A stretch of 64,000 nt of DNA from Candidatus Bathyarchaeota archaeon (GTDB lineage Archaea; Thermoproteota; Bathyarchaeia; Bathyarchaeales; Bathycorpusculaceae), in contig CAVTZU010000015.1 of the NCBI GenBank assembly GCA_963739305.1, forward strand, positions 1 to 64,000, written 5' to 3'. This document shows positions 3,403 to 54,445 of this stretch, one piece after another. The notes under the pieces are model-generated. The model worked only from the letters and a program-made list of their open reading frames with translations, had not been told where the DNA came from and did no database searches. The first letter of the stretch is position 1. Each line of letters begins with the position of its first letter. The position numbers were made by a program, and so were the translations under genes.

Positions 3403-3423
3403 GTGAAAAACCTAAGTCAATGA

Positions 3424-4418
3424 CTATTTTCGTTTTCTGAACAGCTTCACCCCATCGACATCCAGATGACAAAGTCAAAACCTTGTTCTATGAGCTTCGC
3501 TGCTTCATCAACAGTTTTTGCAGTTGCGCAAACATAATCTCCTGGGAAGTCTGCCAAACCCTCAGCCAGATGAATGTAGATGAGAGTGTTTTCGAGTCTT
3601 CTGTGCCCGAGAACATACTTGACACGGAAAATATCTCTTGTCTTAATGTAAGTCATCGTTGCAAACCAGTGGCGCAGATCGTACAATCTTATTTTCAAAA
3701 GCTCAGCGTCCTCAAACTTCCCGTAAGCTCTCTGTCTGTAATCTCTCCAGTTTTCTTTTATCTTGCCCGCTGAACCAAACAGTCTTTTGTCAAGAGTGAC
3801 AATTCGTCTTCTATGAACATAGTCTCTAAGAATATCTGCAGACAATTTCTGAAGCTGAATCGTACGTTGAGCGCCAAGCTTACTCGTTGGAACGTTTATT
3901 CTGCCGTTTTCTAAGTCAATGTTCCTAAGCGTAAGCTTCGCAATCTCGTCAGGTCTAAGACCATGTTTGCTCAGGTTGAAGACTGCCGTGTAAACCCATC
4001 CGCAGCAAGCAATGATCGTGTCGATTCTTTCCTCAGTCGGGATATCAATCACAAACTCTTCGCTCTTCAGCTTCTTCGGCTTTCTATAACAGATATCATT
4101 GGCACAGCAAAAACGCTCATACGCTTCAAAGAGCTTGTTTTTGTAAACATTCTTACAGTTCATAGAATAAATGAATCGTTCAACGTCACCAGGAAGCTGA
4201 AGATTAACATGTTTGCCCAAGCATGTCAGTCTGCTCCAGATTGCTTTTTGATTAGCTTTGCTCAAATGCTGGAGTTTAGCTACGGTCTTTACGATAAGTG
4301 CAAAATCATTAATAGGCTGAAGGGATTCTAGACTCTGCGAAAGGGGCTGTCGGCTAGTTTGGTCTAGGCTTGGAGACTTGGGCTCTCTAGACCCCGGTTC
4401 AAATCCGGGCAGCCCCAT
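3424..4418 (-). CDS. tyrosine recombinase/integrase overlapping tRNA-Pro antisense; frameshift near C-terminus
   Basis: GLRPDE, SKLG, YDLRH, LGH, TLIY catalytic motifs; shifted frame ends DVDGVKLFRKRK*; first 25 codons are the tRNA antisense. Confidence 0.9.
4301..4314 (+). promoter_or_regulatory. putative BRE/TATA promoter of tRNA-Pro inside the integrase ORF
   Basis: CAAAATCATTAATA about 30 nt upstream of the mature tRNA 5' end. Confidence 0.5.
4343..4417 (+). tRNA. tRNA-Pro(TGG), intron-less
   Basis: acceptor GGGGCTG/CAGCCCC, anticodon arm GGAGA-CTTGGGC-TCTCT, T arm CCCGG-TTCAAAT-CCGGG. Confidence 0.93.
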
Positions 4419-4468
4419 GAAATGCTTATAATTTGACGCATATCAGATTGGTTTCAAAGGATGAATCC

Positions 4469-5029
4469 ATGAGTAGAATGCTGCTTCTCGTGCCAAGGAT
4501 GTACACCGAAAGCGAGGTCAAGAGACTCGTGTCAGTTGTCCCTGAGGATTTTGGGCAAAAGACTCAAGAGTTCTGGAGCTACGTTGAGGACAAGCTCAAG
4601 GTCTTCGCTGGGAGGATCCAGAGAGTCTACCGAGATGAGATCTGTCAAGGCGGAGAAGAAGGCCTTGCTATCCTGCCTTCTGTGCAGCATGAAAACTTTC
4701 TCATAGTGAAAAAACTCGTTGAGAACGGTGCCGTGTTCGAGGCAACGGAAGATCCTCTACTTGTCGCGGAGTCGGAGTCATGGCGTGACATGACTAGGCA
4801 GAATCCTTTGGACATTGTGTCTCTTGAAATGTTCCAGGATTCAGTCCGAGAAAGAGACGATTACGTTTCGAGGAGGATTAACGAAAGCCTCCTTGATGAG
4901 GAAACGGGAGTGCTCTTTGTAGGGCCGACGCGAACAGTTAACGTGGACGAACGCACAAAGATAATAAAGGTTTGCGGTTTTGACCCAGCGGACTACTTGA
5001 GGTCGTGGCAGGTTCAGTTGCACCTATAG
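4469..5029 (+). CDS. hypothetical protein; its 3' end is the integration target
   Basis: 187-codon ORF now ending WQVQLHL*; pre-integration end WQVQLNLKL* is reconstructable from 10671-10697. Confidence 0.8.
   Translation: MSRMLLLVPRMYTESEVKRLVSVVPEDFGQKTQEFWSYVEDKLKVFAGRIQRVYRDEICQGGEEGLAILPSVQHENFLIVKKLVENGAVFEATEDPLLVAESESWRDMTRQNPLDIVSLEMFQDSVRERDDYVSRRINESLLDEETGVLFVGPTRTVNVDERTKIIKVCGFDPADYLRSWQVQLHL
5009..5025 (+). repeat. attL CAGGTTCAGTTGCACCT
   Basis: 16/17 identical to 10671-10687. Confidence 0.85.
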
Positions 5030-5941
5030 ACTTTTCCACTGCACCTGCATACAAACCACAGATAATCCAAGACCTAATCAATTTCGCAATAGACATGAAG
5101 CAAAACGGCAAAGCCGAGGCAACAATATCCTCACGAACCAGAATTTTGAGACAACTCGCAAAGATGGCAGACCTCAGAGACCCCGAACAAGTCAAGACCA
5201 CCCTTTCGACACGCCAAACATGGAACAAACGGACAAGACGCAGAGTAGCCGAAACCTACGACGCATTCCTAAAATTCCTTGGTATCAAATGGACAAGACC
5301 GCGCTACATTCCAGAGGATCGACTCCCATTCATACCTACCGAAGCCGAAATTGACCAACTAATAGCCTCATGCGGAAGCCACACAGCAACGCTATTACAA
5401 ACACTAAAAGAAACTGGAATACGAATATCAGAAGCAACCTTCCTAAAATGGACTGACCTCTCATCCGAACAGAAAACACTAAACATCACACCAGCCAAAG
5501 GAAGCAATCCCAGACTCTTACGAATATCCGACAAACTTCTCAACATGCTAAACCGAATACCACGAACTAACGAAACGATATTCTCAACAAACATAGCAGG
5601 ACTGAGAACCACATTTACAAAAAGCAGAAAACTAGCTGCCAAAAAACTCGAAAACCCAAGAATCCTCAGAATATCATTTCACACTTTCCGACACTGGAAG
5701 GCAACAATGGAATACCACAAAACCAAAGACATCATACACGTAAAACAAATACTAGGACACAAATCCATAAACAACACAATGATTTACATCAACATCGAGC
5801 AAGCCCTATTTCTAACAGAAAACGACGAATGGACATGCAAAACAGCCAACAGACATCAAGCAAGCAACAGCACTAATCGAAGCAGGATTCGAGTACGTCA
5901 CCGAAATGGACGGAACTAAACTATTCAAAAAACGCAAATAA
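5011..5941 (+). CDS. integrase C-terminal fragment int(C); frameshift at ~5849
   Basis: GIRISE, PAKG, HTFRH, LGH, TMIY; shifted frame ends LIEAGFEYVTEMDGTKLFKKRK*; strongly A/C-rich codons. Confidence 0.92.
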
Positions 5942-5975
5942 CCCTCCTCTTTTCTTTAACCATCGAAAACCAAAG

Positions 5976-6906
5976 CTACATGTTATAAGCTTCGAAAAGA
6001 GCACGATTCTCCGAATAGACTTTGAATCTATCGGCGAGAGGTGGAGAGTCTATCTTTAGATTTCTTTTCAATTCATTCGCAAATCTTTCAAACTGCAGAT
6101 TCAGCGCATCCCACCCGAAGGTCTTAAGCATAAAGAACTCGGTTTGCACGCAGTGTGTGAAGGCTATTCTTTTGAGGCAACCGTCAAGATTATCTTTTAC
6201 CATTTGTCCGTACAATCTAAAAAACAGATACGCATCCTGATAGGTTACCCAATCGCGAAGTGTCTTTAGATAGTGAGCATGTCAATTCGTACCGAATAAG
6301 GCTGTTCATGCCGTTCTTTTTCTAGCTCACTTTTCGCGGACTCTAAGCAGGCTTTGATGTTTGGAAGGTGATATTTGTCCGCATAATCCCAACCAACAGC
6401 TTTCGAGAAGCTATCAGAAAAACCCCCCGTTGGTCAAGATAGAAGTTGACTGGCGGAAGAAGAAAACGGTTTCGTCTTTTGCTGCATACGAAATCGTTCA
6501 CGTAAGCGTTCAAAACTGCATCATGCGTCTTGCGCTTCGGATGTTCTAGACAGACAAGCGTAGCAATTGAGCTGAACACAGAATAGTAAGACTGTACTAT
6601 TTTCCAAGCCGCAAACCGCAATCTTTCATCGATATTATCCAAAGGATAGTGCAGAGCACACTCATGATACCAGCAGTTTCTAAGGTTTCTAAAGTGCACA
6701 GTCTCATCCTCGCTGTCATCCCTTCTTGGGGCTCTTCCTGCAGGAATAAGTCTCAGAAGCATTTGTCTGCATGACTCATCCCAATCATTCACTTTCCTCA
6801 TGTAGAGGTGACCGATGATATCTGCAATACTTTTCAGATACCGTTCGTGCGTATTCAAATATCGCTCTCTGAAAACTTCAGGCAACGAGTCAAGGAATTT
6901 CACCAT
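5976..6906 (-). pseudogene. HEPN-like protein, frameshifted
   Basis: QSYYSVF...KTH in 6343-6921 and LRDWVTY at ~6243-6263 continue toward ORF 5976-6215. Confidence 0.55.
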
Positions 6907-7212
6907 AATGCACCTTTCCAATCAGCGCAGTACAAAGAATATTTGAACCCTCTAATTTATAAGAACAATTCCAGAGCATGTGCGAAAAATCGTTGGCTCG
7001 TGAGCCGTTCGGCTCACTCGCACGTTCCAGACGATAACGCAAAGCCAAACCAACCGTACAATAAGCATTTCTGCCTGTCGGTCTCGCATCACGCTCGCCC
7101 TTCAAGCACATAGACTCAAAACAACAACTAGTGCGTGCTTATCAACCATGAAACGTGGCACTCACACGCAAGGTCACAGGTTTTTTATTAAACTTCAAGC
7201 TATTACCTACGC

Positions 7213-8190
7213 ATGTCAGCGAAATTTGCTGTTTTTGACGTGTCCGCTCAATTTCTAATGGATGTTGCAAAAGAGGTCGCTTCTTCGCCTCATCCACTTA
7301 ACAAGGATATTTTGCTGGATAGCTTTGATAAGAATCAGGCTTATACATCGAACGCCATCGCCGAATGCCTCCAACTCGGTCTTTTCAATGAAAGAAACGG
7401 CGAATATGTACCAGCCGACAAATATAGAGATTTGATTAAGCGATCTGATAGGTCTCAATTGCATTTGGTCTTGAGGCAAGCGTTGCAGAGCTATCCACCT
7501 TGTCTTCTTTATCTTGATTTCGTTAGCAAAGGATATTCATCAGAACAGTCGGCGAGAATGACCGCAGGAATCTTCAGAATACAGTCTCCAAAGGAAAGAG
7601 TGGAGAAAATGTTTAGGAATTGGGGACTTCAAACTGGTTTAATAGCTTCTGATACTTCTGGAAAACTCTCCATCCCAGAAGGAGAGAAGGGATTGCCCAA
7701 TGAATACATGGAAAGTCTAATGAAAGCTTTGAGGGCAGACCTGCAAGCCAAGATTTTCCTTATTGAGACTATGAGTCCGTCTTCTTACAAGTATCTTACC
7801 GAAAATGGCATCGAAATAGACGACCTTTCAGACGCATTGGTTAACTATGAAAATGACCCTAAGACTTCTGCCAACAAAGCGAGCCAAGTCTTCGAACATT
7901 TCCTTTTCAAATTTGGGGAAGACGTTGGAGCAAATATCGCAAAAGGAAACGGCATAATTCAATATGCCGATATAATCCAAACTGAAAGAAGCTCTGACTT
8001 TTTAGTAAAACACAAGCATATCTGTTACGGTATCGGAGGAATTAGACTCATGGCTCATCACGACCCAGATAAGGAAACGGGTAACCCTTGGATTTTCACT
8101 CCTCAAGGAGCAATCATCAGCACCCTAATTGTTCCCGCAACTATACGAAGCATTTACTTGTACTGGACGGAAAAGAAACAAGAGTTTTAA
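7213..8190 (+). CDS. winged-helix-like N-terminus plus C-terminal HEPN/Abi-C-like domain
   Basis: 325-aa ORF; RLMAHH fits the Rx4H HEPN signature. Confidence 0.6.
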   Translation: MSAKFAVFDVSAQFLMDVAKEVASSPHPLNKDILLDSFDKNQAYTSNAIAECLQLGLFNERNGEYVPADKYRDLIKRSDRSQLHLVLRQALQSYPPCLLYLDFVSKGYSSEQSARMTAGIFRIQSPKERVEKMFRNWGLQTGLIASDTSGKLSIPEGEKGLPNEYMESLMKALRADLQAKIFLIETMSPSSYKYLTENGIEIDDLSDALVNYENDPKTSANKASQVFEHFLFKFGEDVGANIAKGNGIIQYADIIQTERSSDFLVKHKHICYGIGGIRLMAHHDPDKETGNPWIFTPQGAIISTLIVPATIRSIYLYWTEKKQEF

Positions 8191-8212
8191 ATATTGACAT
8201 AGACATGTTAAT

Positions 8213-8953
8213 ATGGGTATTAGGTTGAGTGAAACTGAGACGGTAACTGGGTTTCTGCCTCCGCAAGGTGTGGTGGTATGGTATGACATATTGCTTGGAC
8301 TTCTTGAAAACAGGCAGATTTCGAAAGTTGACAGGGCATTTCTGCAAAACCAAGAGCCCAAAATAGCAAGTGGCAATGAACATAAGCTGATAGCAGGATT
8401 GAAGTTTCTGGGTCTTATCGACAAAGACGGCAACGCCACAGAAGCGATGAATAGTCTGAGTCTAAAAGGTGAGAAACGTCGGGAAAACCTTGAAAAAGTT
8501 GTTCGAAAGGCTTACTGTCTTTTGTTTGAAAAGGTTAAGATAAAGCTCGAAGAAGTTGACTCCGACACTCTCATTAACTCGTTCAAGACTGATTACAAAA
8601 TGAAGTCTATAACGACAGCAGAGCAAGCCGCTCGGATTTTTGTCTTCTTAGCTCAGCAAGCTGGAATCACTCTTTCACAACCAATACTAGATAGACTGTC
8701 TGTATCGGTCGAAAAAGCAAGGAGAGTCAGCGGCATTGCCAAGAAGCCTAGAGGGGTAAAAAAGAAAGACGAAGAAAAACTTGTAGAGACTGAAGAAGAA
8801 ATACCAGAGAAAGGAACATACGTGGGCAGACTCGGAGACAGTATTCTCATCAAATTACGGAAAAGTAGTGACAAAAGTATAAGGGAAAAAATAGCAAAGC
8901 ATGCAAAAACACTTATTGACTTATATGTTGAAGGAGAAGAGGAAGGAAGCTAA
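8213..8953 (+). CDS. DUF5343-like protein
   Basis: GLKFLGLIDKDGNAT...KAY...FVFLAQQAGI pattern. Confidence 0.6.
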   Translation: MGIRLSETETVTGFLPPQGVVVWYDILLGLLENRQISKVDRAFLQNQEPKIASGNEHKLIAGLKFLGLIDKDGNATEAMNSLSLKGEKRRENLEKVVRKAYCLLFEKVKIKLEEVDSDTLINSFKTDYKMKSITTAEQAARIFVFLAQQAGITLSQPILDRLSVSVEKARRVSGIAKKPRGVKKKDEEKLVETEEEIPEKGTYVGRLGDSILIKLRKSSDKSIREKIAKHAKTLIDLYVEGEEEGS

Positions 8954-9003
8954 TGCAATTCTCCATCAGCCTCTGTCACTAGACGCGCGCAATTCAACGT
9001 CTC

Positions 9004-9156
9004 TTAGGTTGAACCTCGTCCCCCACACACGGGACATTTTAGCAACCCCGTTCCACCGCAATGAGTGCAAGCAGAACCGAAGTATACCCTACCACTTCCG
9101 CCACAGACTCCACAATAAACACTGCCAGAACCTTTGCATGTTCCGCATTCAGTCAT
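9004..9156 (-). CDS. 50-aa DnaJ-type cysteine-rich zinc-finger mini-protein (not in ORF track)
   Basis: MTECGTCKGSGSVYCGVCGGSGRVYFGSACTHCGGTGLLKCPVCGGRGST*: four CxxCxGxG; upstream GGAGG. Confidence 0.85.
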   Translation of the reverse strand: MTECGTCKGSGSVYCGVCGGSGRVYFGSACTHCGGTGLLKCPVCGGRGST

Positions 9157-9282
9157 TTTTGTGACATCCTCCTATCAACATCATTCTCACACATGAAATA
9201 AAAGATTTTCTGAAAGGTTCTTCATCATTGAAAATAGGAAAGAAAGGAGACAGACCTGCTCACGAACACGAACAAAAGCACG

Positions 9283-9588
9283 TCAACAACCAGAACAAAT
9301 CCCGTTCTTCCAAGCATAAAATAGAGCCCAATACGTACGCCTTCGGTTCTCACCAACCAAACCCCGTTCTGAAAGGTACTGCTCAACAAACGCGTTAAAT
9401 GACTCAACACTACGACAATGTGCCACATCATCAAAATTCAACCAACGTTTAGGCTCTCTACGACGTTCAGAGCTACCGCTACTCAATCCTACCACCCACG
9501 GCGTCAACGTAATTAGGCAAACCTGATTCGTCAAACTCATCATCGACAAACCACTTCTGATATGAAGGGTCGCCAATATCCCTAGCAA
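9283..9588 (-). CDS. small hypothetical element protein (true start probably near 9440)
   Basis: C-terminal ~50 aa look protein-like (FNAFVEQYL...YWALFYAWK). Confidence 0.35.
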   Translation of the reverse strand: MLGILATLHIRSGLSMMSLTNQVCLITLTPWVVGLSSGSSERRREPKRWLNFDDVAHCRSVESFNAFVEQYLSERGLVGENRRRTYWALFYAWKNGICSGC

Positions 9589-9640
9589 TGACTCGCAATG
9601 AGAAGATCACAATCACGCTCAAAAATCTCCCACACTCATG

Positions 9641-9669
9641 TCCTCGGAGACATAAGCCTTCCCTTCATT
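9641..9669 (+). repeat. 29-bp partial duplicate of the element leader
   Basis: 28/29 identical to 10392-10420. Confidence 0.85.
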
Positions 9670-9772
9670 AGCTTGTCATGCTCCAATATCACGTAAAGCG
9701 CGCGCAACAAGTCTCATCTCTCTTCTTTGTACTCACTCGTTGCGACAAGTTTTTTAGTTTAACCACCAGATA

Positions 9773-10177
9773 ATGAAATCTGGTGAAAACATGTGTCCAG
9801 TGATTAACAAAGACGACTTCAGAAAACTGATTCCTCCCGACCTTGAACGTAAATTGAGATATGAAGAGGACCTTCCAAATCAAGAATTGCATATCATTGC
9901 TGTAGAATTTATCGGAGGCGTAGAATTCGCGGAACTCCGACGAATCGTCAAGGAACTCGGCGGCACATATTTTCATAAAGAAAAGAATTCTTATTTCAAG
10001 ATTTCCTTAGGTTCGCGTGCTACGCTAGAGCATGACAACAAGTTGGAATTAGCCAAACATTTTGAACTTTCAGAAAGATACGAAGAGGCTGCATCAATCT
10101 ACGAGTCAATGGACATGTACAAAGAGGCGGAAATGGCCAGACAGCGCGCGAGAGAGAAAGCAAAGAAGCCATCATAA
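9773..10177 (+). CDS. hypothetical protein with TPR-like C-terminal helix pair
   Basis: 134-aa ORF; AKHFELSERYEEAASIYE. Confidence 0.65.
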   Translation: MKSGENMCPVINKDDFRKLIPPDLERKLRYEEDLPNQELHIIAVEFIGGVEFAELRRIVKELGGTYFHKEKNSYFKISLGSRATLEHDNKLELAKHFELSERYEEAASIYESMDMYKEAEMARQRAREKAKKPS

Positions 10178-10389
10178 GCGCAGGCGCAAGGCGAACGACG
10201 ACGCAACATCAGTCGCCACAGACACCAACGAACTGGAAACAAGTCTTAGATCAAGACGCAGAACCAAGATACACGAACAAATAGAGACTGACAGCGTCAA
10301 CAGAACCGAACTTGTCTAAAATAGTGACCAAGAACGCCAATGCGACCTATGGATACAAGGACGACTAAAATTAGTGATGACAGCGACAT

Positions 10390-10496
10390 TCTCCTCGGAG
10401 ACATAAGCCTTCCCCTCATTTGAAATTCAAGAGGAAAAGCATGAAAGCATCACATACGCAAGCCAATCATAAATCTATGCGGAAGCTTGCTATTAG
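10390..10496 (+). promoter_or_regulatory. conserved non-coding leader upstream of int(N)
   Basis: first 50 nt are 43/50 identical to the minus-strand copy starting at 49338; two inverted repeats. Confidence 0.75.
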
Positions 10497-10564
10497 CATC
10501 ATATGAGGAAGGCATATTGTCTCCTCGTCCTCACAACGATAAATTGTGAAATCAGGTAATATAC

Positions 10565-10682
10565 ATGACATACCAAACAAACGAAAACAATTCTCGTAGA
10601 AGGTCCGACGAAGCTAGGAAAAATCCCGAAGAAGAAATACAGCAAAAACAAGAATTACTAAGGCTAAAGACAGGTTCAGTTG
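10565..10682 (+). CDS. integrase N-terminal fragment int(N)
   Basis: MTYQ...ELLRLKT-GSV; the GSV codons are the att core and match the GSV that begins int(C). Confidence 0.8.
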
Positions 10683-10688
10683 AACCTG
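10671..10688 (+). repeat. attR, perfect inverted repeat CAGGTTCA-GT-TGAACCTG
   Basis: direct repeat of 5009-5025; followed by the displaced host gene end AAACTATAA. Confidence 0.85.
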
Positions 10689-10789
10689 AAACTATAATCT
10701 TTGCCATGAGAACTGTAATATCTTGCCGGACGACATGCCAGTCGGTTTGGTCTTCTTCTCCAAGGTCTGATTACGTTCAACTTCTTGGC

Positions 10790-11515
10790 TCAGGTTTTGG
10801 CGAGATCTTTCAACGAGTCCACTTGCCACACAGAGAGGTAGAGTTCTTGTCTGAAGGTTTTTCCGGTGAATTCCTTCTTCAACAGTTTTAGCACTCGCAA
10901 GTTCACATCTTCTGGTATGTCCCAGTTGCTCGAATGGTTTCTCTGCTGCAGATTTGCAAGAGTTTCGTCCGCAAAAGTCTCGTATGAAGCTACGTACAAG
11001 GACTTTGTGGGTTCGATCACATCTCTCAGGTCCTGTTCTGATTTCCCCCGGTGAACACGTTCGTATCCTTGCTGTTTCAGAAGCTCATGATAAGCCTCTC
11101 TAACAGGGTCTCTAGAAGCAGCGTACAAGGAAATCATAGCATACCGACTCACTCGACAGATCTCTCCCAGAACCTTTTGCCATTCAGCTACTAGATGAAG
11201 GATATGAACGGCAACTGTGATGTCGAACGTCTTGTCTCTGAACGGAACCGAACGCACGTCGCCGAGAATCAAGTCTTTCACGCCTTTCTCCTTCGCCTTG
11301 CCCATCATTTTCCTGCTGATGTCAACTCCCACAACGTTGAATTCTGCTTTCTGCAACGGCTCGGCAAACCTACCCGTTCCAACCCCAACGTCAAGCACTG
11401 CCTTGCAGTCCTTAAGCTCCAACGTTAGAGCCTCAATCAGTCGGGCCATCACGTTGTTCGGTAAGGCACGGGTCTTGTCATAGACTTCTGCGACTCTGTC
11501 AAACGAAACGCTCAC
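10790..11515 (-). CDS. class I SAM-dependent methyltransferase
   Basis: VLDVGVGTG, GVDIS. Confidence 0.92.
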   Translation of the reverse strand: MSVSFDRVAEVYDKTRALPNNVMARLIEALTLELKDCKAVLDVGVGTGRFAEPLQKAEFNVVGVDISRKMMGKAKEKGVKDLILGDVRSVPFRDKTFDITVAVHILHLVAEWQKVLGEICRVSRYAMISLYAASRDPVREAYHELLKQQGYERVHRGKSEQDLRDVIEPTKSLYVASYETFADETLANLQQRNHSSNWDIPEDVNLRVLKLLKKEFTGKTFRQELYLSVWQVDSLKDLAKT

Positions 11516-11682
11516 AGTTACACCTCAACACTCTCAATATTATTGTAGACCACTTTTCGTACAGCGAAGAGGTCTACATTATTAGAATTTCCATCACTCC
11601 GACTCTTCTTTTTTGCGTTTCGCCAAGACAAAAATTGACTTGAAAAAACGTTTATCAAGCGGGCGATTATCACTTACCCGCT

Positions 11683-12054
11683 ATGAGCGACAAGGAATTA
11701 GCCGCGTTAAGGGAAAAGAAATTGCGGGAGCTTCAAAAGAAATTCGGCGAAAAACGAACCCAACCCCAACAGGTTAACAAAGATGACGTATTGAACAAGA
11801 TCTTCAAAGACAGAGCATGGGAAGTGTTCAACGCGGCGCTCAGTCAGTTCCCCGATGCTACAAGCAGGGTCAGAGAAGTGCTGGTGAAGCTTGCCTCATC
11901 CGGCAAACTGAAAGAGGTAACTGGCGAAGAACTTTTCGTTTTTCTGAGGAAACTGGGGCTAGACGTCAAATTGAACACGAAGATCACATATGCCAGCCAT
12001 GGACAACTCAGATCGCTTGAAGAAAAAATGAAGGAAGAACTGCAGAGGACCTGA
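11683..12054 (+). CDS. PDCD5-related DNA-binding protein
   Basis: DKELAALREKKLRELQ N-terminus; 123 aa. Confidence 0.7.
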   Translation: MSDKELAALREKKLRELQKKFGEKRTQPQQVNKDDVLNKIFKDRAWEVFNAALSQFPDATSRVREVLVKLASSGKLKEVTGEELFVFLRKLGLDVKLNTKITYASHGQLRSLEEKMKEELQRT

Positions 12055-12346
12055 TTGTCAAACAATGAATATTCGAAATACTGCCAGCAGGAAAATCATA
12101 TTTCTGTTGTGCGCTGCTTCTTTGATTGGTTGAGGGTTCGTTCAACTTCCAAAGACGAACAGAAGGCGTTCCCGCGAGTATCTTAGGGTCTCACGCACTC
12201 AGCTTTAGGGCGATATGGTCTCTTTCGTGTTCGTTGTTGGTGATGGTAATCGCATTCGTGAACGCGAACTACCATGAAACCATCATCCTGATATTCGCAG
12301 CCGCAAGGCAGCAGGTTTGTCTTCTTTGTCACAGTCTTCTCCAGCC

Positions 12347-13339
12347 TCACTTTGCCAGAAACTTGTAGACAGGATGTCCCTTGAACCTCAGTGTGGTTTC
12401 AGACCTCTCAACAGTCCCACTTGGCAACCTCATACAGATTGAATTTACAATTGCCCCTTCCGGAACGAATCGCACACCATCCAAAAGTTCACCTTTCGTC
12501 ACGCCTGAAGCCACAAAGACCAATTCATTTCCTTTGGCTAACTCATCTTCACAATAAGTCTTGTTGATATCTACACCTTCAATTGCAAGCCTTTTTGTCC
12601 GGTTCGGATCGTGCTTCTCGCCTTTCCAAACGTTCACGAGCATGGTGCCTCCCAAACATTTTATGGCCGTTGCAGCGATCGTCGCTTCAGGCCCCGCTCC
12701 AGCGCCCAGAAGAAGGTCAACGCCCGATCCTGGTCTGCACGTAACGACTGCTCCGGCAATATCACCGTCAGAAATCAGAATTATCCTCACGCCCATCTTC
12801 CTCAGGATCTTCAGAATTTCATTGTGTCGGTCACGCTCTAACATTATGACGGTGAAGTTCTCGAGGCGCAATCCCTTGCAATGGGCGACCGTTTGCACGA
12901 TCTCTTCCACCGACATGTCTAGGGAGATTTTTCCTTTCGAATTGTGATCTGTTGCTACTTTGAAGTAATATCCGTCGTCGGGAAGCACTTGGAAACAGCC
13001 AGACGGCGCACATGCCAAGGCTGAGATTGCGTCTTTTCTACCTTTGGAAGTAGCTGTTGTTCCGTCAACAGGATCAACCACGAACTCTACTTTTGGACCA
13101 TTTCCCGTTCCGACTTTCTCGCGACGTTCAAAGGCAGGCGCGTTGTCCTTTGGTCCTTCACACGCGATGACCTCGCCTTCAACGTCGGTCTGCGCTAGGA
13201 CGGCCCTTGAAAACTCAACAGCCTTTGCATCCACCAAATCAGGGTTGCCTTGTCCGATGTGTAGTGCCGCTCCCACTGAAGCGGCGACGGTGATTCTCGT
13301 TAAGGATGGCGCCAAAGCTCTGAGAGAAACCATAATCAC
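12347..13339 (-). CDS. glpX: class II fructose-1,6-bisphosphatase
   Basis: VDPVDGT, LERDRH, ISDGDIAGA, FVASGVT. Confidence 0.88.
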   Translation of the reverse strand: MIMVSLRALAPSLTRITVAASVGAALHIGQGNPDLVDAKAVEFSRAVLAQTDVEGEVIACEGPKDNAPAFERREKVGTGNGPKVEFVVDPVDGTTATSKGRKDAISALACAPSGCFQVLPDDGYYFKVATDHNSKGKISLDMSVEEIVQTVAHCKGLRLENFTVIMLERDRHNEILKILRKMGVRIILISDGDIAGAVVTCRPGSGVDLLLGAGAGPEATIAATAIKCLGGTMLVNVWKGEKHDPNRTKRLAIEGVDINKTYCEDELAKGNELVFVASGVTKGELLDGVRFVPEGAIVNSICMRLPSGTVERSETTLRFKGHPVYKFLAK

Positions 13340-48683: not shown

Positions 48684-48765
48684 CTGACAGCCGACTTCTG
48701 TCTCTTGCCTAAAAGCGTTCTGGTTTTCTGCGAAGCCTACGAAAAACGGTTGAATGGATAGTTTG

Positions 48766-48921
48766 TGGTGTGGCCGGCCGGATTTGAACCGACGACCTAC
48801 GGGTCTCTCCGTGGTATGACTGTTCCAGAACTTCCTCATTCCCTCTCCGGTCGGTCGGTGGAAGTCCCTCGACTACACCTCTATCTCCCTTTACCACTTT
48901 CTGGAGCCCGTCGTCATACCT
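48766..48921 (-). tRNA. partial tRNA-Trp(CCA), lacking the first ~16 nt, with a 96-nt anticodon intron (displaced att copy)
   Basis: AGGTATGACGACGGGCTCCAG-[48805-48900]-ACCCGTAGGTCGTCGGTTCAAATCCGGCCGGCCACACCA; no 5' acceptor strand found upstream. Confidence 0.88.
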
Positions 48922-49022
48922 GACTTAATGCTTAGTAATTCTATGATGTTGTTCATTGTTTGGTTCTGGTTGATGGTGTCTTTTGTCTCTATACCATGTG
49001 TTTCTTCTGGTTGGGTGCTCAA
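48891..49022 (-). CDS. candidate int(N) fragment running into the tRNA att
   Basis: 43 aa LSTQPEE...IELLSIKSGMTTGSRKW*; ELLSIKSG parallels ELLRLKTG of int(N) at 10565. Confidence 0.6.
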   Translation of the reverse strand: MSTQPEETHGIETKDTINQNQTMNNIIELLSIKSGMTTGSRKW

Positions 49023-49162
49023 TATTTCGCCTTCCTTATTGGTTGACTTGTTCTTTCTCGGATTGTGACCACTAGGACTTTGATTACTCCTCTTGGGGTT
49101 CGGTAGGTTCCTATGTGGTCAAGGGCTATTATCTGTTCTTCTGGATTCTCGGTTCGTAACAT
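49019..49162 (-). CDS. 47-aa hypothetical protein, coupled to candidate int(N)
   Basis: MLRTENPEEQIIALDHIGTYRTPRGVIKVLVVTIRE...; TGA overlaps the next TTG. Confidence 0.45.
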   Translation of the reverse strand: MLRTENPEEQIIALDHIGTYRTPRGVIKVLVVTIRERTSQPIRKAKY

Positions 49163-49232
49163 ACATTACACATCCATTCACTTTCGTTGCGTTGACGCGA
49201 CGAGAAGGCAATACGCATTTCTAGCAGGGAGT

Positions 49233-49338
49233 CTAGAAGGAAGCTAAGCATAGTTGCAAGATTGGCTTCCGTACGGAATGAGAGACGACTTTTCCTCTTA
49301 AATTTCTAATGAGGGAAATGCCTATGCCTTCGAGGAGA
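49233..49338 (-). promoter_or_regulatory. second copy of conserved element leader
   Basis: aligns with 10390-10496. Confidence 0.75.
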
Positions 49339-49486
49339 TAGTTCATGCGTCATTCAGTTTAGTCGTGGTTTCACGTTTAGCGATCGGGTGTTTGAGTGCC
49401 TGTTCTATTGTATTTTTTGTTCTATTAGTGTTGCACTTCCCGTTTTTCGCGTAGTGAGTGCCTGCGATTGACGCGCGCGCTTGGTT

Positions 49487-50125
49487 TTAGTAGTAGTATG
49501 TTACCAATACAGTTTCAGTTGCGTTGTCAACAGCGTTTGTATTGCCTACTTGGATCTCTATGTTAGCTGGAAGGACTGGGAACCATGCTGAGCCGTTTGA
49601 ACCGACGTTTACTGTGTTATCATATTTGGCCCATCCGTTATACACGTATGAAAGTTCAACGAAGGTATCGTTTGTCGATGAAGAAACATGCACAACGACT
49701 AAACCAGCAACGTCTGCAGAATAGTTCCAAGAAGTACTACTATTGGCTGGTTGACTTACCGCCTCATTTTCCACCCAATCCTTATAAAATCCAAGATTAA
49801 TTTTGATTTCAAGCAACCCCACTTGAGTTGAAATGTTATTCACTTCAGACAATAAGAGCGACATATGAGATGAGTCATAGACGATCGTGGCATTTTGTTC
49901 AGCAAGCTTAAAACTGTCAGCCGCAATCGTTTCGTTCTCAGCTATCACTTGTTCTTGGAGAGTTGTCAATTCAGTGTTCAAGGCGGAAATCGTGTTGTTC
50001 TTATCAGCTATGTAATATGCAAGCGCTCCACCTAAACCAGCTACTAGAATAATGCAGGCTGCTACGAGTGCGATGGCGACACTTCTTCTAACAACTTTCC
50101 TTTCATTGACTTTTGGTTCACTCAT
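49487..50125 (-). CDS. membrane-anchored coiled-coil protein
   Basis: RSVAIAL TM anchor, coiled coil, beta-rich C-terminus ending YYY. Confidence 0.8.
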   Translation of the reverse strand: MSEPKVNERKVVRRSVAIALVAACIILVAGLGGALAYYIADKNNTISALNTELTTLQEQVIAENETIAADSFKLAEQNATIVYDSSHMSLLLSEVNNISTQVGLLEIKINLGFYKDWVENEAVSQPANSSTSWNYSADVAGLVVVHVSSSTNDTFVELSYVYNGWAKYDNTVNVGSNGSAWFPVLPANIEIQVGNTNAVDNATETVLVTYYY

Positions 50126-50324
50126 TCTTGAATCCCTAGTTTGTCTTCTGTTGCTGTGCAGATTAAAGATTTCTGTGTTTGTCGGCTTTGCGTTAACGAT
50201 TCTGAGCCGTCGGCGAAGCGGAACGTCATGGTTGTCAAGTCTCGGGTCTGGTTTTGCAGTCGGTGTGAGAAATCTGATGAGGCTGTTGCGCGCGCAATGT
50301 GTCTCACGTGGCATCAGTGTGAAT

Positions 50325-51128
50325 TCAGGTTGTTTTCTTTGTAACATCGGACTTGAGGAGTCTGTAAGCTGCTATTAGAGTGAATACGATCGCGTAGACG
50401 GCTATGATCAACGACGCTTGGGCAAGGGCTCCAAGGTCACCTGCGGGAAGCACACTGGACGATGTTATCAGTTCACTCATGACAAGCGACGGGAAGTTTG
50501 TTGCTGCCCATGTTGGAATAGCCCGCGTGCTTATGCCATAGAGAAGGGTTAAGATCGGGCTTATGATGTATGAAGCGATAAGTATTGCTAAGGCCAACAG
50601 AATTGCGAGAGTGGTTCCTCTGAAGACTTCGCTGAACATGAATGATAAACAGAAGAAAATGAGAGAAGAATATACAATGGCCAAAAACATTATCGGAGCA
50701 AATTGGAGACCGTTCTGTGCACCAAACAATCCGAGTGAAAGGGCAACGCCTACAAAGGTTATCAAGGCTTCAACCATGGCTAACAAGGAGAATCCGCCCA
50801 AGAACTTCCCAGACATGTACTCAACCCGCGTAATGGGTTTGGAGAGCAATATGTCAGCCGTCCCGTGTTCATATTCTTCAGACATTGAACCGCCGCCAAC
50901 TATGATGGCTATCAACTGAACAAACAAGCCACCTTCCAGCACGCCGGTAATCCACACTAGGGACGCTTCATTCGTCAAGAAACCCTCTGCAAACAGCGCG
51001 TGCATTCCAGCCATTATCAATGTTTGAATTGCTATGGCCAGGATTATGAGGGCAAGAACTTTCTTCTTAGCCAGGGCTCTCCTCCACTCGTACCCAGCGA
51101 TTACAGCGACTCTTCCGAGGGCGTCCAT
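50325..51128 (-). CDS. ABC-2 permease
   Basis: EEYEHGTADILLSKPITR. Confidence 0.9.
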   Translation of the reverse strand: MDALGRVAVIAGYEWRRALAKKKVLALIILAIAIQTLIMAGMHALFAEGFLTNEASLVWITGVLEGGLFVQLIAIIVGGGSMSEEYEHGTADILLSKPITRVEYMSGKFLGGFSLLAMVEALITFVGVALSLGLFGAQNGLQFAPIMFLAIVYSSLIFFCLSFMFSEVFRGTTLAILLALAILIASYIISPILTLLYGISTRAIPTWAATNFPSLVMSELITSSSVLPAGDLGALAQASLIIAVYAIVFTLIAAYRLLKSDVTKKTT

Positions 51129-51129
51129 G

Positions 51130-52068
51130 CTATTGACCTCCTTTTAGAGCTTGGAGATAAGCGTCTTCCAACGTAACCTTACGGAGGGTTAGGCCTAGCA
51201 ACACGCCTTTTTGTTTGAAGATTTCTGAGGAGATTTCGCCCCTCACGTCTTTTTTCTCCTTCAGCTCTATCGATAGCTTGTTTCCGTCCACCTTTACATC
51301 GTTCACGAACTCAAGCGCTTTAAGGCTTGAGACTATGTTTTCGGTTACTTTTTCAAGCTCGGCTTCCACTACCCATTGTTGAGTGAAAGCTTCCAGCATC
51401 TGTTCGATTGGTCCCGTGAAAACGATTTTTCCCTTGTTTATCATTCCTACGTGGGTGCAGATTCGCTGAACCTCGTCCAACAGGTGAGATGAAATAAAAA
51501 TTGTTTTGCCATCCTTTGAGAGTTTAGTGAAAAGGCTTCTGAAGTGAGCTGTGGCCTCTGGATCCATACCTATGGTGGGCTCATCCATTATCAGAACCAT
51601 TGGATCGTTGATAAGGGCAAGGGCCACAGACAGCCTCTGAACCATGCCTTTGCTGTAGTTTCCAATCTTCTTCTTTCCCCATTCTTTCAAACCGACAAGA
51701 TCTAGGAGCTGCTTAGTCTTTTCCTTTCTAGGCTGCATGGGCAACCCGAACATTTTGCCCATAAAGTCAAGCAACTGCTCTGCAGTGAAGAAAGTTTGAA
51801 GTGTTGGAAGCTCTGAAGCATACCCAACAAGTTGGAGCGCGTGAACGGGATCCTTTGAGGGATTTGCGCCAGCTATCTGAACTTCTCCTTGATTTGGTTT
51901 AAGGAGACCCAGCATAATCCTTATAGTAGTTGTTTTGCCCGCCCCGTTTGGTCCAAGATAGCCGTACACACAGCCTTTATCCACTTTGAAGGAAACAGAG
52001 TCCAAAGCCTCGAATTTTCCGTAGTACTTTGTCAGGTTTGAAACGCTCAAAACCGAAGTGGACGCCAA
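51130..52068 (-). CDS. ABC transporter ATP-binding protein
   Basis: GPNGAGKT, YSKGM, MDEPT. Confidence 0.93.
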   Translation of the reverse strand: MASTSVLSVSNLTKYYGKFEALDSVSFKVDKGCVYGYLGPNGAGKTTTIRIMLGLLKPNQGEVQIAGANPSKDPVHALQLVGYASELPTLQTFFTAEQLLDFMGKMFGLPMQPRKEKTKQLLDLVGLKEWGKKKIGNYSKGMVQRLSVALALINDPMVLIMDEPTIGMDPEATAHFRSLFTKLSKDGKTIFISSHLLDEVQRICTHVGMINKGKIVFTGPIEQMLEAFTQQWVVEAELEKVTENIVSSLKALEFVNDVKVDGNKLSIELKEKKDVRGEISSEIFKQKGVLLGLTLRKVTLEDAYLQALKGGQ

Positions 52069-52200
52069 AAAGATTACCCAGTTCTTAACTATCTTGCGTA
52101 GGCACGCCTAATAACATTTAGGGTTATCACCTATTCGTTGCTATACCTCTTGCTATTCCGCCGGCAGCGTTGCCTTCCTAATAACAAAACGCGCGCGCTA

Positions 52201-52232
52201 GCTGTTGTTTTGAGTTTTTGTGGGTTAGAGCG
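52201..52232 (+). repeat. 32-bp direct repeat, copy 1
   Basis: 28/32 identical to 54149-54180. Confidence 0.8.
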
Positions 52233-52282
52233 TCATCTATAGTCTTATTAGATTAAATCCGACACTCCTAAAAGAGGAAGCA

Positions 52283-53292
52283 GTGATGTCAGGTAGAGCT
52301 GTAGAAGTAGATCTGAGAAAGGTTAGACCAAACAGGTTCAATCCAAGGCTAGACTTCAATGAAGAAGACCTCAGGAATCTGGCAGATAGCATTCGAGAGA
52401 AAGGTCTTTTGCAGCCGATTATCGTCAGACCCGTAGACAATGAGTTTGAGGTCGTTGTCGGTGAAAGACGGTATAGGGCTGCCCAGAAAGCAGGGATGGA
52501 ACGGATTCCAGTGGTGATTCGAGAGTACTCAGACGAGGAGGTAATTGAACTAAGTCTGATTGAGAATATTCAGAGAACAGATCTAAGCGCGGTTGAGAAA
52601 GGTAACAGTTGCAAGCAACTTATGGAGAAATATCCTCAGAAGTTTCCGAATAAGGGAGCCATAGCGAAATCATTGAGAGTCTCTGAAACAACTATTTCGG
52701 CTTGGCTAGAGCTTGTTGAGGCGCCTAATGAGCTTCAGAGAATGATTGCTCCTGCAGGCAAAATCGGTGTTCCGAGAGAACAGGGGAAAATCGATTGGGA
52801 CACAGCGGTTACTATTACTAGGCAGATAGAACAACCAGATAGACAAGTATCAATCGCGAGGGAAATCGCTAGAAGACCAATTTACAGAAGACAGGCGAGG
52901 GAAGTAATATCAAAGGCTGCAAAACAGCCTGAGAGACCAATTGAACAGATATTCAAGGAGGTAGTCGAGGCTCCTTATGAGATGCCCTTTCGACTTGTAC
53001 ATATGAAACCGATTCTGGATGGAGAGAAAATTCAGAGTTCTAGAAAAGGCATTTCAGATCCTCGCGTCAAAATCGGATCAATAATACATGGGCAGTTTGG
53101 GAACCGAACTTTGCCACGTTGCGTGTCGTTTCGATGGTAAGAAAGCGTCTTGGAGAATTCACTGAAGAGGATGCAAAAAGGGAAGGTGGCTATACTCTCG
53201 CAGAATTCAAGAAGACTTGGAAGAATCTGCATGGTGATTGGAATGAGAACGAGTTCGTCTACGTCTTTGGCTTCCAACTGGTCAGGCAGTAG
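52283..53292 (+). CDS. ParB-domain / ASCH-domain fusion (frameshift at ~53090)
   Basis: GLLQPIIVR, GERRYRA, ENIQR; then ILDGEKIQSSR and, in shifted frame, FTEEDAKREGG...VYVFGF*. Confidence 0.85.
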
Positions 53293-53300
53293 GCGATAGC

Positions 53301-54029
53301 ATGTCATGGCGGAAAGAGTCTATTTTAGTTTTGGTTAAGGCGGCACCCAATTGGAGCGACAAATATGGATCATACCTCGTTTGCACTGGTGGCATAACTA
53401 AATCAAATCAGTGGAGGCGCCTATATCCAATGCCTCTGGACTTTATCGTCGGAAAGGTACACCGATGGGACATGATAGAGGTCAACACTACAGAACCTGA
53501 ACATGATCCTCGTTCTGAGAGCAGAAAAATAGATCCAAGTTCAATTGTTGTTGGCGGAAGCTTTTCAAAAGACAAAGAGGAGCGTCGAGTGCTCTTGAAC
53601 AAGCTAGCTGAGAAATCTCTGGACGTGGCAATTGGAGAGAGACGGTCTATCATTCTGATCAAACCAGAGATAGTTGACTTCCACATAGTTGAAAGAAAAG
53701 ATAAGCCAGTGCAGCTTACGCTGAACGGTGAAGTGTTCAAGGAACAACCCTACAGAGACGTAAGCCTCTACTATCGGTGGAATTGTCCAGAACGGTGTCA
53801 TGTGTGCAGCAGACATCCTCACCACATGGAATGCTTCGATTGGGGTGCAGGCGTCCTTTGGAGCAGGTATAAGGCAGACAGAAAAGTCGCCGAGGAGAAG
53901 ATCACTGAAATGTGTTACGACAATATGAAAGAGAAATTCGATGCTTGGTTTGCTTTGGGAACACACAGTCGCCGTCCCTTTAGCAAGTGGATGGTAGTGA
54001 GTCTCTTGTGGATGAAGAAAGCGTTCTAG
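53301..54029 (+). CDS. conserved hypothetical protein (OB-fold-like, KxxP..S.KY...VCT.G...W.RLYP family)
   Basis: LVKAAPNWSDKYGSYLVCTGG...WRRLYP; DPRSES; C/H cluster before DW. Confidence 0.75.
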   Translation: MSWRKESILVLVKAAPNWSDKYGSYLVCTGGITKSNQWRRLYPMPLDFIVGKVHRWDMIEVNTTEPEHDPRSESRKIDPSSIVVGGSFSKDKEERRVLLNKLAEKSLDVAIGERRSIILIKPEIVDFHIVERKDKPVQLTLNGEVFKEQPYRDVSLYYRWNCPERCHVCSRHPHHMECFDWGAGVLWSRYKADRKVAEEKITEMCYDNMKEKFDAWFALGTHSRRPFSKWMVVSLLWMKKAF

Positions 54030-54148
54030 TCTCCTTTTGCGTGCGCGCTGTTTGGCGAAAGCCCGCGCAATCAAGTGAATGATGAGTAATCCTTTGGAAG
54101 TTCAGGAGCGCGCGTCTCTTTTTGCCATTCTTTTCGGCGTTTGTCTGA

Positions 54149-54180
54149 GTTGTTGTTTTCAATTTTTGTGGGTTGGAGCG
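54149..54180 (+). repeat. 32-bp direct repeat, copy 2
   Basis: 28/32 identical to 52201-52232. Confidence 0.8.
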
Positions 54181-54244
54181 CGAGCGTGATGCGAGCGCGA
54201 CATAATGAGCGCGCGCTAAGGGGCGGGCTTGACTTGGAAAAGGG

Positions 54245-54445
54245 TGGTGGGGCCGGGCGGATTTGAACCACCGACCTTTACCCAGAGCAGTGCACGAAGC
54301 GCCGCTCCTACGGGTTTCTTCTGACAGCTCCAGAACCTCTTCATCCCTTTTTGAGGTCCGTAAACCCGTCACTACTTTCTGGAGCCCGTCGTCATACTTG
54401 ATCCGATCGATCGATCGATCGATCGTCTGCCTAGACTACGACCCC
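54245..54445 (-). tRNA. tRNA-Trp(CCA) with three introns
   Basis: exons join to GGGGTCGTAGTCTAGGCAG|GTATGACGACGGGCTCCAG|ACCCGT|AGGTCGGTGGTTCAAATCCGCCCGGCCCCACCA; introns 54398-54426 (D loop), 54316-54378 (37/38), 54278-54309 (43/44, clear BHB). Confidence 0.92.
54316..54378 (-). ncRNA. intron-encoded C/D-box-like guide RNA
   Basis: guides ACGGGTTT and TTCTGGAG complementary to the flanking tRNA segments; CGGA (D'-like) and ATGAAGA (C'-like); a known feature of archaeal tRNA-Trp introns. Confidence 0.7.

Follow-up and report, generated by a model that had tools for sequence, protein, structure and literature searches.

The 64,000-nt window analyzed here, the first part of contig CAVTZU010000015.1 of a Candidatus Bathyarchaeota archaeon (GenBank assembly GCA_963739305.1), holds two integrative elements: el1 (5009-10671), inserted in an open reading frame (ORF), and el2 (48923-54244), inserted in a tRNA-Trp gene. 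Comparison with related genomes and metagenome contigs suggests that both are members of a single family of small Bathyarchaeia elements that integrate by means of SSV-type (type I, 'suicidal') tyrosine integrases. The fixed arm of their attachment site is probably the left core half-site (consensus GGC[A/T/G]GGT), followed by a variable overlap of ~8 bp, and el2 appears to be a decayed member of the family. We give this reading as a whole (the family, the half-site/overlap core and the decay of el2) a probability of about 0.78.

The attachment site of the element (attP) lies about 35-40 codons into the integrase gene, and integration leaves the catalytic part of the gene, int(C), at the left attachment site (attL) and the short N-terminal part, int(N), with a conserved leader, at the right one (attR). 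Excision and integration would be carried out by the reconstituted enzyme. The window belongs to a metagenome-assembled genome (MAG), designated G000, of 2.3 Mb in 36 contigs, with 97% completeness and 7.8% contamination. Other G numbers denote related genomes, C numbers the contigs of a named genome (e.g., C25, C10 and C13 of G000) and L numbers the loci obtained from scans. The leader model, R1, was run on 151 related genomes including G000, and 22 matches were listed; the counts of junctions and targets given below are our own reading of these listed sequences. Sixteen elements with both ends were compared, i.e., three from G000, ten from relatives, and L054, L071 and L073. The search for the target ORF of el1 took in 61 family genomes, and the metagenome contigs placed on window positions 3000-12500 were short contigs from four peat or sediment runs.

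The first element is delimited by a direct repeat, CAGGTTCAGTTG, with copies at 5009 and 10671, and has the following features:

4433-5029, plus strand: target ORF of 198 aa without a Pfam family, its last codons altered by the insertion
5005-5919, plus strand: int(C) of el1, a tyrosine recombinase (Pfam PF00589, E 1.8e-19, profile positions 4-169 of 172)
5007-5028, plus strand: attL of el1, with host half-site GGCAGGT, overlap TCAGTTGC and element half-site ACCTATA
10388-10552, plus strand: leader of el1 (model R1, 168.9 bits)
10565-10690, plus strand: int(N) of el1 (37 codons) with attR, where GACAGGT (10669-10675) is followed by TCAGTTGA and then by ACCTGAA

The frame of int(C) across the repeat is that of the 37-codon ORF at 10565; hence, conceptual excision of el1 yields a single integrase gene. 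The homologues of int(C) in the protein database were annotated as integrases and named Bathyarchaeota or Bathyarchaeia. The target ORF now ends in ..QVQLHL and a stop codon, and would end in ..QVQLNLKL and a stop if read through attR. Some short metagenome contigs bridged attL and attR of el1 in the integrated state.

The second element and the tRNA-Trp locus that it occupies have the following features, all on the minus strand:

48765-48922, minus strand: tRNA-Trp copy A (attR), consisting of the five-sixths at the 3′ end of the original host gene, from the D-loop to CCA, now displaced
48891-49022, minus strand: int(N) remnant ORF of el2, 43 aa, with its end and stop codon within the tRNA-Trp sequence
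48910-48917, minus strand: proposed 8-bp overlap, ATGACGAC, of the tRNA-Trp att, placed here because the repeats of L054 (16 nt) and L071 (13 nt) end at this point
48918-48942, minus strand: P-arm DNA word (ATTACTAAG..TAAG.CAGGT), ending in the left half-site GTCAGGT (48924->48918)
48923-54244, minus strand: body of el2, with genes for a membrane protein, an ABC-2 permease, an ABC ATPase and a ParB-like protein, and an ORF of 242 aa
49171-49340, minus strand: leader of el2, a 16-bp long-range inverted repeat/hairpin around a variable middle (R1, 190 bits)
54148-54202, minus strand: GC-rich then A-rich motif after copy B, with a second copy at 52191-52232 and one in el1 at 7076-7138
54245-54445, minus strand: tRNA-Trp(CCA) copy B, complete, with three introns, presumed to be element-borne
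54398-54426, minus strand: D-loop insertion of copy B, 29 nt, between GGCAG and GTATGAC, inside the integrase half-site

A preliminary description, made from the sequence alone, had proposed that el1 and el2 represent one element family retargeted between a tRNA and a protein gene. Both ORFs on which it relied were found as claimed, one at 48891-49022 (minus strand) with ELLSIKSG at residues 28-35 and the other at 10565-10891 (plus strand) with ELLRLKTG at residues 30-37. Homology to the target starts at CAGGT in both elements, as seen from the direct repeat of el1 and from the comparison of el2 with those tRNA-Trp genes of relatives that have no D-loop intron (the DNA reads AAGACAGGT at 10667-10675 and AAGTCAGGT at 48926->48918). 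The shared leader was confirmed (10361-10529 vs. 49366-49199, 70% identity over 170 nt, E 4.9e-13, including a 50-nt block at 86%), as were the sizes of ~5.5 kb, which from repeat to repeat amount to 5662 bp for el1 and 5478-5479 bp for el2. The int(N) ends of the two elements are identical at 21 of 25 nt (84%; 10651-10675 vs. 48942-48918), a match that alone is not significant (E 0.12).

The family extends beyond the window. Four copies of the leader were found in G000 (el1, el2, one on C25 and one on C10; R1 169-199 bits), and matches to R1 occurred in nine of the 151 genomes. Behind 20 of the 22 listed leader matches, within about 100-330 nt, stood the junction word ATTACTAAG..TAAG.C(A/T/G)GG; the two matches without it were L031 and the weak L029. 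Since this pattern recurs at so many leader matches in nine genomes, it goes beyond chance. Thirteen different sequences follow the junction among the 20, so that tabulating what stands after CAGGT, as had been suggested, revealed diverse targets at a fixed C(A/T/G)GG junction. Direct att repeats flank the family elements. The preliminary placement of el1 in a protein gene held insofar as el1 is inserted in an ORF, but this ORF is rare, being present in three of the 61 family genomes: G000 (twice), G069 (52% identity, different 3′ end) and, weakly, G060. A firmer protein target is that of the C25 element, whose 21-nt repeat lies at the stop/start junction of the alpha (PFOR_II) and beta (TPP_enzyme_C) genes of a 2-oxoacid:ferredoxin oxidoreductase. 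On C10, a 23-nt repeat surrounds a 2.6-kb remnant with a decayed int(C).

The short ORF proved to be joined to a recombinase: int(N) and int(C) share one frame across the repeat in 15 of the 16 elements compared, the exception being a decayed copy in G069. The integrase gene is split in el1, C25, C10, L054 and L071, unlike the pNOB8-type (type II) arrangement, in which an intact int lies beside att. The reading of the junction word as a conserved ELLxxKxG peptide, by contrast, did not hold. The ELL frame is used at 14 of the 20 junctions, whereas two tRNA-Gly(GCC) members read the word as ITKxNRQADVLDQTRLRP and members in G001 and G005 read a variant of it as ENY(N/Y)GLGRVTTNTPA, each in frame with its own int(C); in L017 and L022, a TAG falls within the ELL frame. 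Because three frames are used in this way and two copies carry the stop codon, the word is conserved as DNA and not as peptide. From a set of 2660 homologues of int(C), not one of the best 120 had an ELLxxKxG-like N-terminus, although these entries are gene calls of int(C), in which a fused form could not appear. At least 12 of these best 120 begin with MTT(P/R/H).., which corresponds to the ATG of GGTATGACGAC in gene calls at a tRNA-Trp attL, and about a dozen more begin with M/L/V-A-G, i.e., xTG-GCA-GG of the host half-site; gene callers thus place the starts of these ORFs inside att.

The fixed arm can be described from the host side as well. When the 16 attL were aligned on C(A/T/G)GG, the host-side 7-mer was GGCAGGT, GGCGGGT, GGCTGGT or GGCAGGC in 13 of them and GAC.GG. 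in three (tallies as listed: GGCAGGT, 7; GGCGGGT, 3; GGCTGGT, 2; GGCAGGC, 2; GACAGGT, 1; GACTGGG, 2). These attL span 11 unrelated targets, the host sides of which carry G(G/A)C(A/T/G)GG(T/C/G). In seven elements, the direct repeat does not reach the two leading G, and the element has GA or GT at their position, which makes the leading G a property of the target and not a product of the crossover. In six el1-like elements, the 7-mer after an 8-nt spacer is ACCTATA, ACCCGCC (twice), ACCTGCC, ACTCACC or ACACGCC, matching the inverted left site at four to seven of seven positions, and L071 has the perfect inverted repeat GGCAGGT-N8-ACCTGCC. The direct repeat ends within one base of the spacer end in five of the six (equal in L071, L054 and G027:C2b, one base longer in G027:C15, one base shorter in el1).

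We read the core as a probable tyrosine-recombinase site of the classical kind, composed of a half-site, an overlap of ~8 bp and a second half-site, in which the bases bound and cut by the enzyme are inferred. The stretch that encodes ELLxxKxG and ends in CAGGT would be the conserved P-side DNA of attP, closing with the left core half-site. Identity between the overlap and the chromosome would choose the target, and the el1-like subfamily would add an inverted half-site, ACC(C/T)GCC, after the overlap. Of the att cassette that the preliminary description had imagined to be exchanged downstream of a fixed arm, the fixed junction was retained; what is exchanged would, on the simplest view, be the ~8-bp overlap next to a half-site that the targets have as well. 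Members that target tRNA genes add a tRNA-restoring extension.

The att stretch would encode a tolerant linker, readable in any of three frames, so that a few base changes, or swaps of int(N)/int(C) modules between co-resident elements, could re-aim an element. The alternative that elements change target chiefly by trading whole int(N) or int(C) modules with co-resident or tandem elements through homologous recombination, and not by change of the overlap, corresponds to the hybrid model as described by Badel et al. 2020 (PMC7253208), and we rate it at a little short of even odds. Besides the published description of the model, mosaic structures speak for it: the leaders of el2 and the C25 element are 90.7% identical over 483 nt and lose all similarity about 75 nt short of the junction, and the metagenome contigs join conserved modules in many combinations. 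Tandem arrays in which two members share one att (CGGGTTACGACCAACAC..) were also found (G001:C1:852787-863000 and G005:C9:61500-74800); at their middle junctions (L019, L022, L025) the int(N) of one member abuts the int(C) of the next out of frame, and the same att is read in different frames. Module exchange leaves the origin of a new overlap unexplained, and the difference between el1 and G027:C15, whose int(C) are 69% identical and whose overlaps differ at two of eight bases for different targets, looks stepwise. The two routes, module exchange and overlap mutation, are compatible and not exclusive.

The claim that el2 is an intact, retargeted element was not sustained. No integrase catalytic part was found in the body of el2, its int(N) ORF stops eight codons past the junction, and el2 itself thus does not show the layout with attP inside int. 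Its insertion is nevertheless clear from relative G004, where the same site is empty, with the HAD gene, tRNA-Trp and the 5S flank and nothing between them. Copy A adjoins the HAD gene as in G004; it has one long intron and lacks the 5′ acceptor strand and the 5′ D-stem strand. The 5S flank stays beside tRNA-Trp in all relatives compared. The two tRNA copies share an identical stretch of 24 nt (48918->48895 vs. 54397->54374), and the full CAGGT at el2 becomes visible against the tRNA-Trp genes of relatives without a D-loop intron. The GC content of the body is 45.6%, against 47.8-50.2% in the flanks.

Copy B is the sole tRNA-Trp found in G000. ARAGORN and Rfam called neither copy tRNA-Trp, and their identity follows from the orthologues in relatives. 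ARAGORN models one intron only and miscalls the multi-intron genes, copy B included; it called three of nine aligned sequences tRNA-Trp(cca), namely the orthologues of G001, G002 and G009. The D-loop insertion, which interrupts the otherwise normal copy B, changes the 7-mer before the overlap to ATCAAGT, leaving copy B without a half-site. A D-loop intron is present in the tRNA-Trp of G005, G008 and G010 and absent from that of G001, G002, G004 and G009. The insertions of G000, G005, G008 and G010 are homologous to one another and to those of the element-borne tRNAs of L054, L071, L072 and L075. Within one genus, the single tRNA-Trp gene has one, two or three introns in varied combinations; among eight genomes, the D-loop intron occurred in four and a variable-region intron in five, and the 37/38 intron was of at least two types. 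A (GATC)n run makes up most of the D-loop insert in copy B.

Relatives with both ends intact indicate how such a locus may come about. Scanning the genome contigs for the junction word gave 11 loci, six of them bacterial chance matches and five from Bathyarchaeia, three of which were tRNA-Trp junctions; the metagenome scan gave 16 loci, 13 being int(N)-type junctions at tRNA-Trp and three native tRNA variants. The order in L054 is 5S, the first 29 nt of tRNA-Trp, int(C) in frame (47% identical to that of el1) and a complete tRNA-Trp with D-loop intron; the GC-rich motif and about 5 kb of cargo come next, before int(N) and the rest of the host tRNA. The host gene is thus divided into two parts separated by 6.6 kb, and the element supplies a spare whose 29-nt insertion stands between GGCAG and GTATGAC. 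Two copies of the 19-nt tRNA 5′ exon are present as direct repeats with a spacing of 1031 nt. L071 has the layout of L054 within 3.8 kb. In L073 and L081, the int ORF runs in frame through the whole 3′ part of the tRNA, intron included, and the tRNA is rebuilt at attL. The integrase ORF at the attL of L073 (about 4948-5100) reads about 140 nt of tRNA-Trp and intron before the catalytic part, so that the intron sequence has to serve both splicing and coding; the 5S gene of these two loci is 99% identical to that of the window. Finally, the layout of G000 is found again in L075/L083 and L072, where 1.2 or 2.0 kb separate a D-intron tRNA from int(N)-attR and int(C) is missing. In L075, the 5S gene lies directly upstream, as in G000.

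From these arrangements we propose that members aimed at the tRNA-Trp D-loop split the gene and make up for it in one of two ways: in some, the int ORF takes in all of the remaining tRNA, and others carry a spare tRNA-Trp with a D-loop intron breaking the half-site. El2 would be of the spare-carrying kind and would have lost attL and int(C) by recombination between the identical 19-nt tRNA 5′ exons. Such a deletion would remove the attL core and int(C) and join the host flank to the element's tRNA, which is the layout of G000, and the result would be an immobile element whose tRNA serves the host. We consider this route likely; it would account for the lack of int(C), the presence of the motif some 45 nt past copy B (tRNA and motif follow in the same order in L054), the unlike intron sets of copies A and B and the size of el2. 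Copy B would then be element-borne and now the only tRNA-Trp of its host. The intron would presumably block recombination at the spare tRNA. The broader idea, that the D-loop intron acts as an anti-recombination device and that exon deletion then fixes the element's tRNA as the host gene, is more tentative. If true, the same route, repeated, would spread non-canonical tRNA introns through Bathyarchaeia and immunize the locus, and it would link delivery of introns by mobile elements and protection of att by introns to one defined enzyme site.

Alternatively, the el2 layout might be primary, i.e., a non-autonomous element of leader, P arm and tRNA-Trp, moved in trans by a related integrase. The recurrence of the int(C)-less layout in G000, L072 and L075/L083 and the interior genes of el2, which have no match in the intact relatives, would suit such an element. 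Its circle, however, would place the upstream flank of the D-intron tRNA after the overlap, with no P′ half-site. The three int(C)-less copies measure 5.5, 2.0 and 1.2 kb, as decay products would, and the repeats needed for the deletion are present in L054. We regard a primary non-autonomous layout as improbable. Less probable still is the preliminary model taken literally, in which ELLxxKxG is a conserved N-terminal peptide, a discrete att cassette is exchanged and el2 is a working element at tRNA-Trp; the prevalence of the ELL frame and the fixed position of the junction agree with it, but the other frames, the TAG codons and the truncated, int(C)-less el2 do not. Chance similarity, or two ordinary tRNA-Trp paralogues with host genes between them, can practically be dismissed, since the weak 25-nt match and the ordinary-looking ABC transporter genes inside el2 are set against the E value of the leader match and its R1 scores, the empty site of G004, a copy A without the tRNA 5′ part, and the same tRNA-Trp junction in 13 of 16 metagenome loci and three of five Bathyarchaeia genome loci.

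Several observations weigh against the preferred reading of el1 and el2 as one family with a half-site/overlap core and a decayed el2. A frameshift near 5850 (5840-5860) in int(C) of el1 removes the conserved C-terminal tail ..LIEAGFEYV..KLFKKRK; relative to the metagenome contigs of all four runs, the window has one extra base at 5840-5860, which reflects a genuine inactivating mutation or else a mistake in the assembly. No empty el1 site was found among the 61 family genomes and no circular form of el1 was found; the excision joint 5009->10671 was missing from the 15 of 38 joints listed, though contigs cannot show absence. In the other ten elements (the C25, C10 and C15b-type subfamilies), no clear right half-site was present (0-4 of seven positions), and in the el1-like group it also encodes a conserved TPAQ-like peptide, so that the inverted repeat could be a coding by-product. 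As G000 is a MAG with the contamination given above, its four leader copies need not share one cell. The deletion route of el2 is deduced from comparison, and its layout could also have arisen from a non-autonomous element or through gene conversion. Within the 3-5 kb examined beside the D-intron tRNA-Trp genes of G005, G008 and G010, no element remains were found; the D-loop intron could thus stem from the host, with later capture by elements. Folding of the insert gave an internal hairpin and no clear bulge-helix-bulge (BHB) motif.

Part of the surroundings of el1 is present twice in G000. The block at 3424-5126 recurs on C13 (G000:C13:1-3300; 95.5% identity over 1704 nt), reaching from a tRNA-Pro-linked integrase through attL of el1 to the first ~40 codons of its int(C), which breaks off there. 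Because of this recurrence, the target of el1 may be part of an older island; the copy on C13 could represent duplication or strain mixing in the MAG. The tRNA-Pro-linked gene is a third split integrase, with int(C) at 3447-4418 (minus strand; PF00589, 4e-16) starting antisense inside tRNA-Pro (4343-4417, plus strand). Its C-terminus is truncated and its int(N) end is off the contig.

Other family members showed further variations of the attachment site. The C25 element (G000:C25:12344-18899, L011) has a P′ arm that re-creates the last two codons and the stop of the host gene with synonymous bases; its cargo includes a NosD/beta-helix protein and a SIR2-like domain protein (PF13289, 5e-10) that may be defence cargo. 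At antisense tRNA targets, tRNA-Gly(GCC) among them (L085, G008:C1; L090, G027:C3; L091, G077:C13), the attL repeat is in two blocks 49-51 nt apart and attR is contiguous; this implies that the element-supplied tRNA 5′ half has an extra D-arm insertion, through which the int ORF reads. Episomal attP sites were sought by a scan of viral contigs for the P-arm end, N8 and the right half-site; none of the 12 loci obtained had a nearby integrase or the upstream word, and they were discarded as chance matches. The seven loci with integrase relatives in viral contigs represented a different, unsplit-looking subfamily with an N-terminal zinc ribbon.

The 16-bp long-range helix of the leader was kept in 26 aligned matches, with 95.8% of cells pairing, and with the partners slid, pairing of the whole leader structure was 41-54%. 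Both sides changed in 11 of the 16 pairs, in an alignment that was fitted to the model and thereby favours the structure. As G-U pairs are few, the helix may represent either a stem in RNA or two inverted sites for a protein. One arm of the el1 leader is repeated 750 nt upstream, and two tandem ACACC(C/T)GCCCAGA repeats, like the leader arms, may be protein sites. A small protein encoded in the leader was considered and rejected by eye: the forward ORFs of el2 and C25 are closed by stops in el1 and C10, and the reverse frame that is open across the conserved block stops right after it in el2. In el1, no minus-strand ORF of at least 60 aa covers the leader.

The GC-rich then A-rich motif (55-70 nt) is common to several integrative elements. 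In el2, its two copies flank the pair of the ParB-like gene and the 242-aa ORF, and elsewhere in G000 it was found at C25:15720-15789, C30:61-121, C8:10933-10993, C28:33869-33936 and C26:12672-12715. Metagenome contigs of three peat runs piled up on the el1 copy, with a summed depth of 686-1281 in bin 6804-7120 and 0-200 in the neighbouring bins. The motif may be an origin or a promoter.

Altogether, the preliminary interpretation is partly supported. Much of what surrounds it is already known: target switching by SSV-type integrases, insertion at protein-gene ends and the idea that mobile elements deliver introns. What is new lies in the details, i.e., a half-site common to attP and all attB (the chromosomal sites) with three reading frames in use, a split tRNA offset by a spare, intron-guarded one, and a deletion that would hand the spare to the host. 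The logic of a self-splitting integrase is extended from hyperthermophiles to abundant peat and sediment archaea. With a fixed part reduced to a 7-bp word that both partners have, and a variable part of only about 8 bp, the proposed core gives a testable rule for landing sites, protein-gene ends included. The tRNA-Trp branch suggests a chain in which a gene is split, a spare tRNA with an intron in the integrase site is supplied, the int half is deleted and the host keeps the element's tRNA, which bears on the origin and purpose of non-canonical archaeal tRNA introns. For annotation, it is a warning that the sole tRNA-Trp found in a genome was not called Trp by ARAGORN and went unreported by Rfam.

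In phage lambda, the site-affinity (saf) variants of attP show that a change of the overlap re-aims a tyrosine integrase and that the overlap must match between the partners. Lambda is a bacterial phage with attP outside int, and the parallel serves as a model of mechanism only. The att of the Sulfolobus fusellovirus SSV1, which like SSV2 encodes an integrase of this type, is the 44-bp 3′ end of tRNA-Arg. The Bathyarchaeia family resembles SSV1/SSV2 in its self-partitioning int gene, its tRNA targets and the reconstitution of the tRNA at one border, and it differs in that some members cut the tRNA in the D-loop and leave it unrebuilt, with a spare gene.

Similar in behaviour are the suicidal integrases of the Thermococcales pT26-2/pTN3 group, for which Badel et al. 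2020 (PMC7253208) describe target switching, alternate-frame att, hybrid int halves and tandem insertions. The target switching of the preliminary description was thus supported as a family trait, although it had already been published for SSV-type integrases. Both groups have attP inside the int ORF, split on integration, and related enzymes with different targets. The Thermococcales targets described there are tRNA 3′ ends, whereas here they are the D-loop or 5′ half of tRNAs (sense or antisense), an operon junction and ORF ends. A 7-bp word common to attP and all attB sets the Bathyarchaeia family apart from that group, as do its hosts, which come from peat and sediment and are not hyperthermophiles; the likeness drawn here is one of described architecture.

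Protein-gene 3′ ends are known archaeal integration targets, as reported in PMC6563490 and PMC8371274. Among the Thaumarchaeota elements treated by Krupovic et al. 2019 (PMC6563490), att are short (13 bp and up), 14 of 68 elements lie in protein-gene 3′ ends and the element gives a new stop codon. For Thaumarchaeota elements, neither a split integrase nor a single family spanning tRNA and protein targets, as found here, is described in the portion of that paper drawn on.

A precedent for the tRNA-Trp branch comes from Caldiarchaeum subterraneum and its tRNA-Thr(GGU) locus (Sugahara et al. 2012, PMC3293823), where a 5′ tRNA fragment stands first, then a recombinase gene, and last a complete tRNA whose D-arm bears an additional intron (position 24/25). 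In the text of that paper, mobile elements are proposed to deliver tRNA introns, such introns are proposed to protect the site, and the SSV1/SSV2-type integrase is described in the discussion. The Caldiarchaeum integrase is read there as pNOB8-type (unsplit), in a 1.8-kb insert, whereas the integrase is split here. In the Bathyarchaeia elements, moreover, the far end, with int(N) and the rest of the tRNA, is seen, the intron is placed against a defined half-site, and the follow-on deletion that would fix the element's tRNA appears at three loci.

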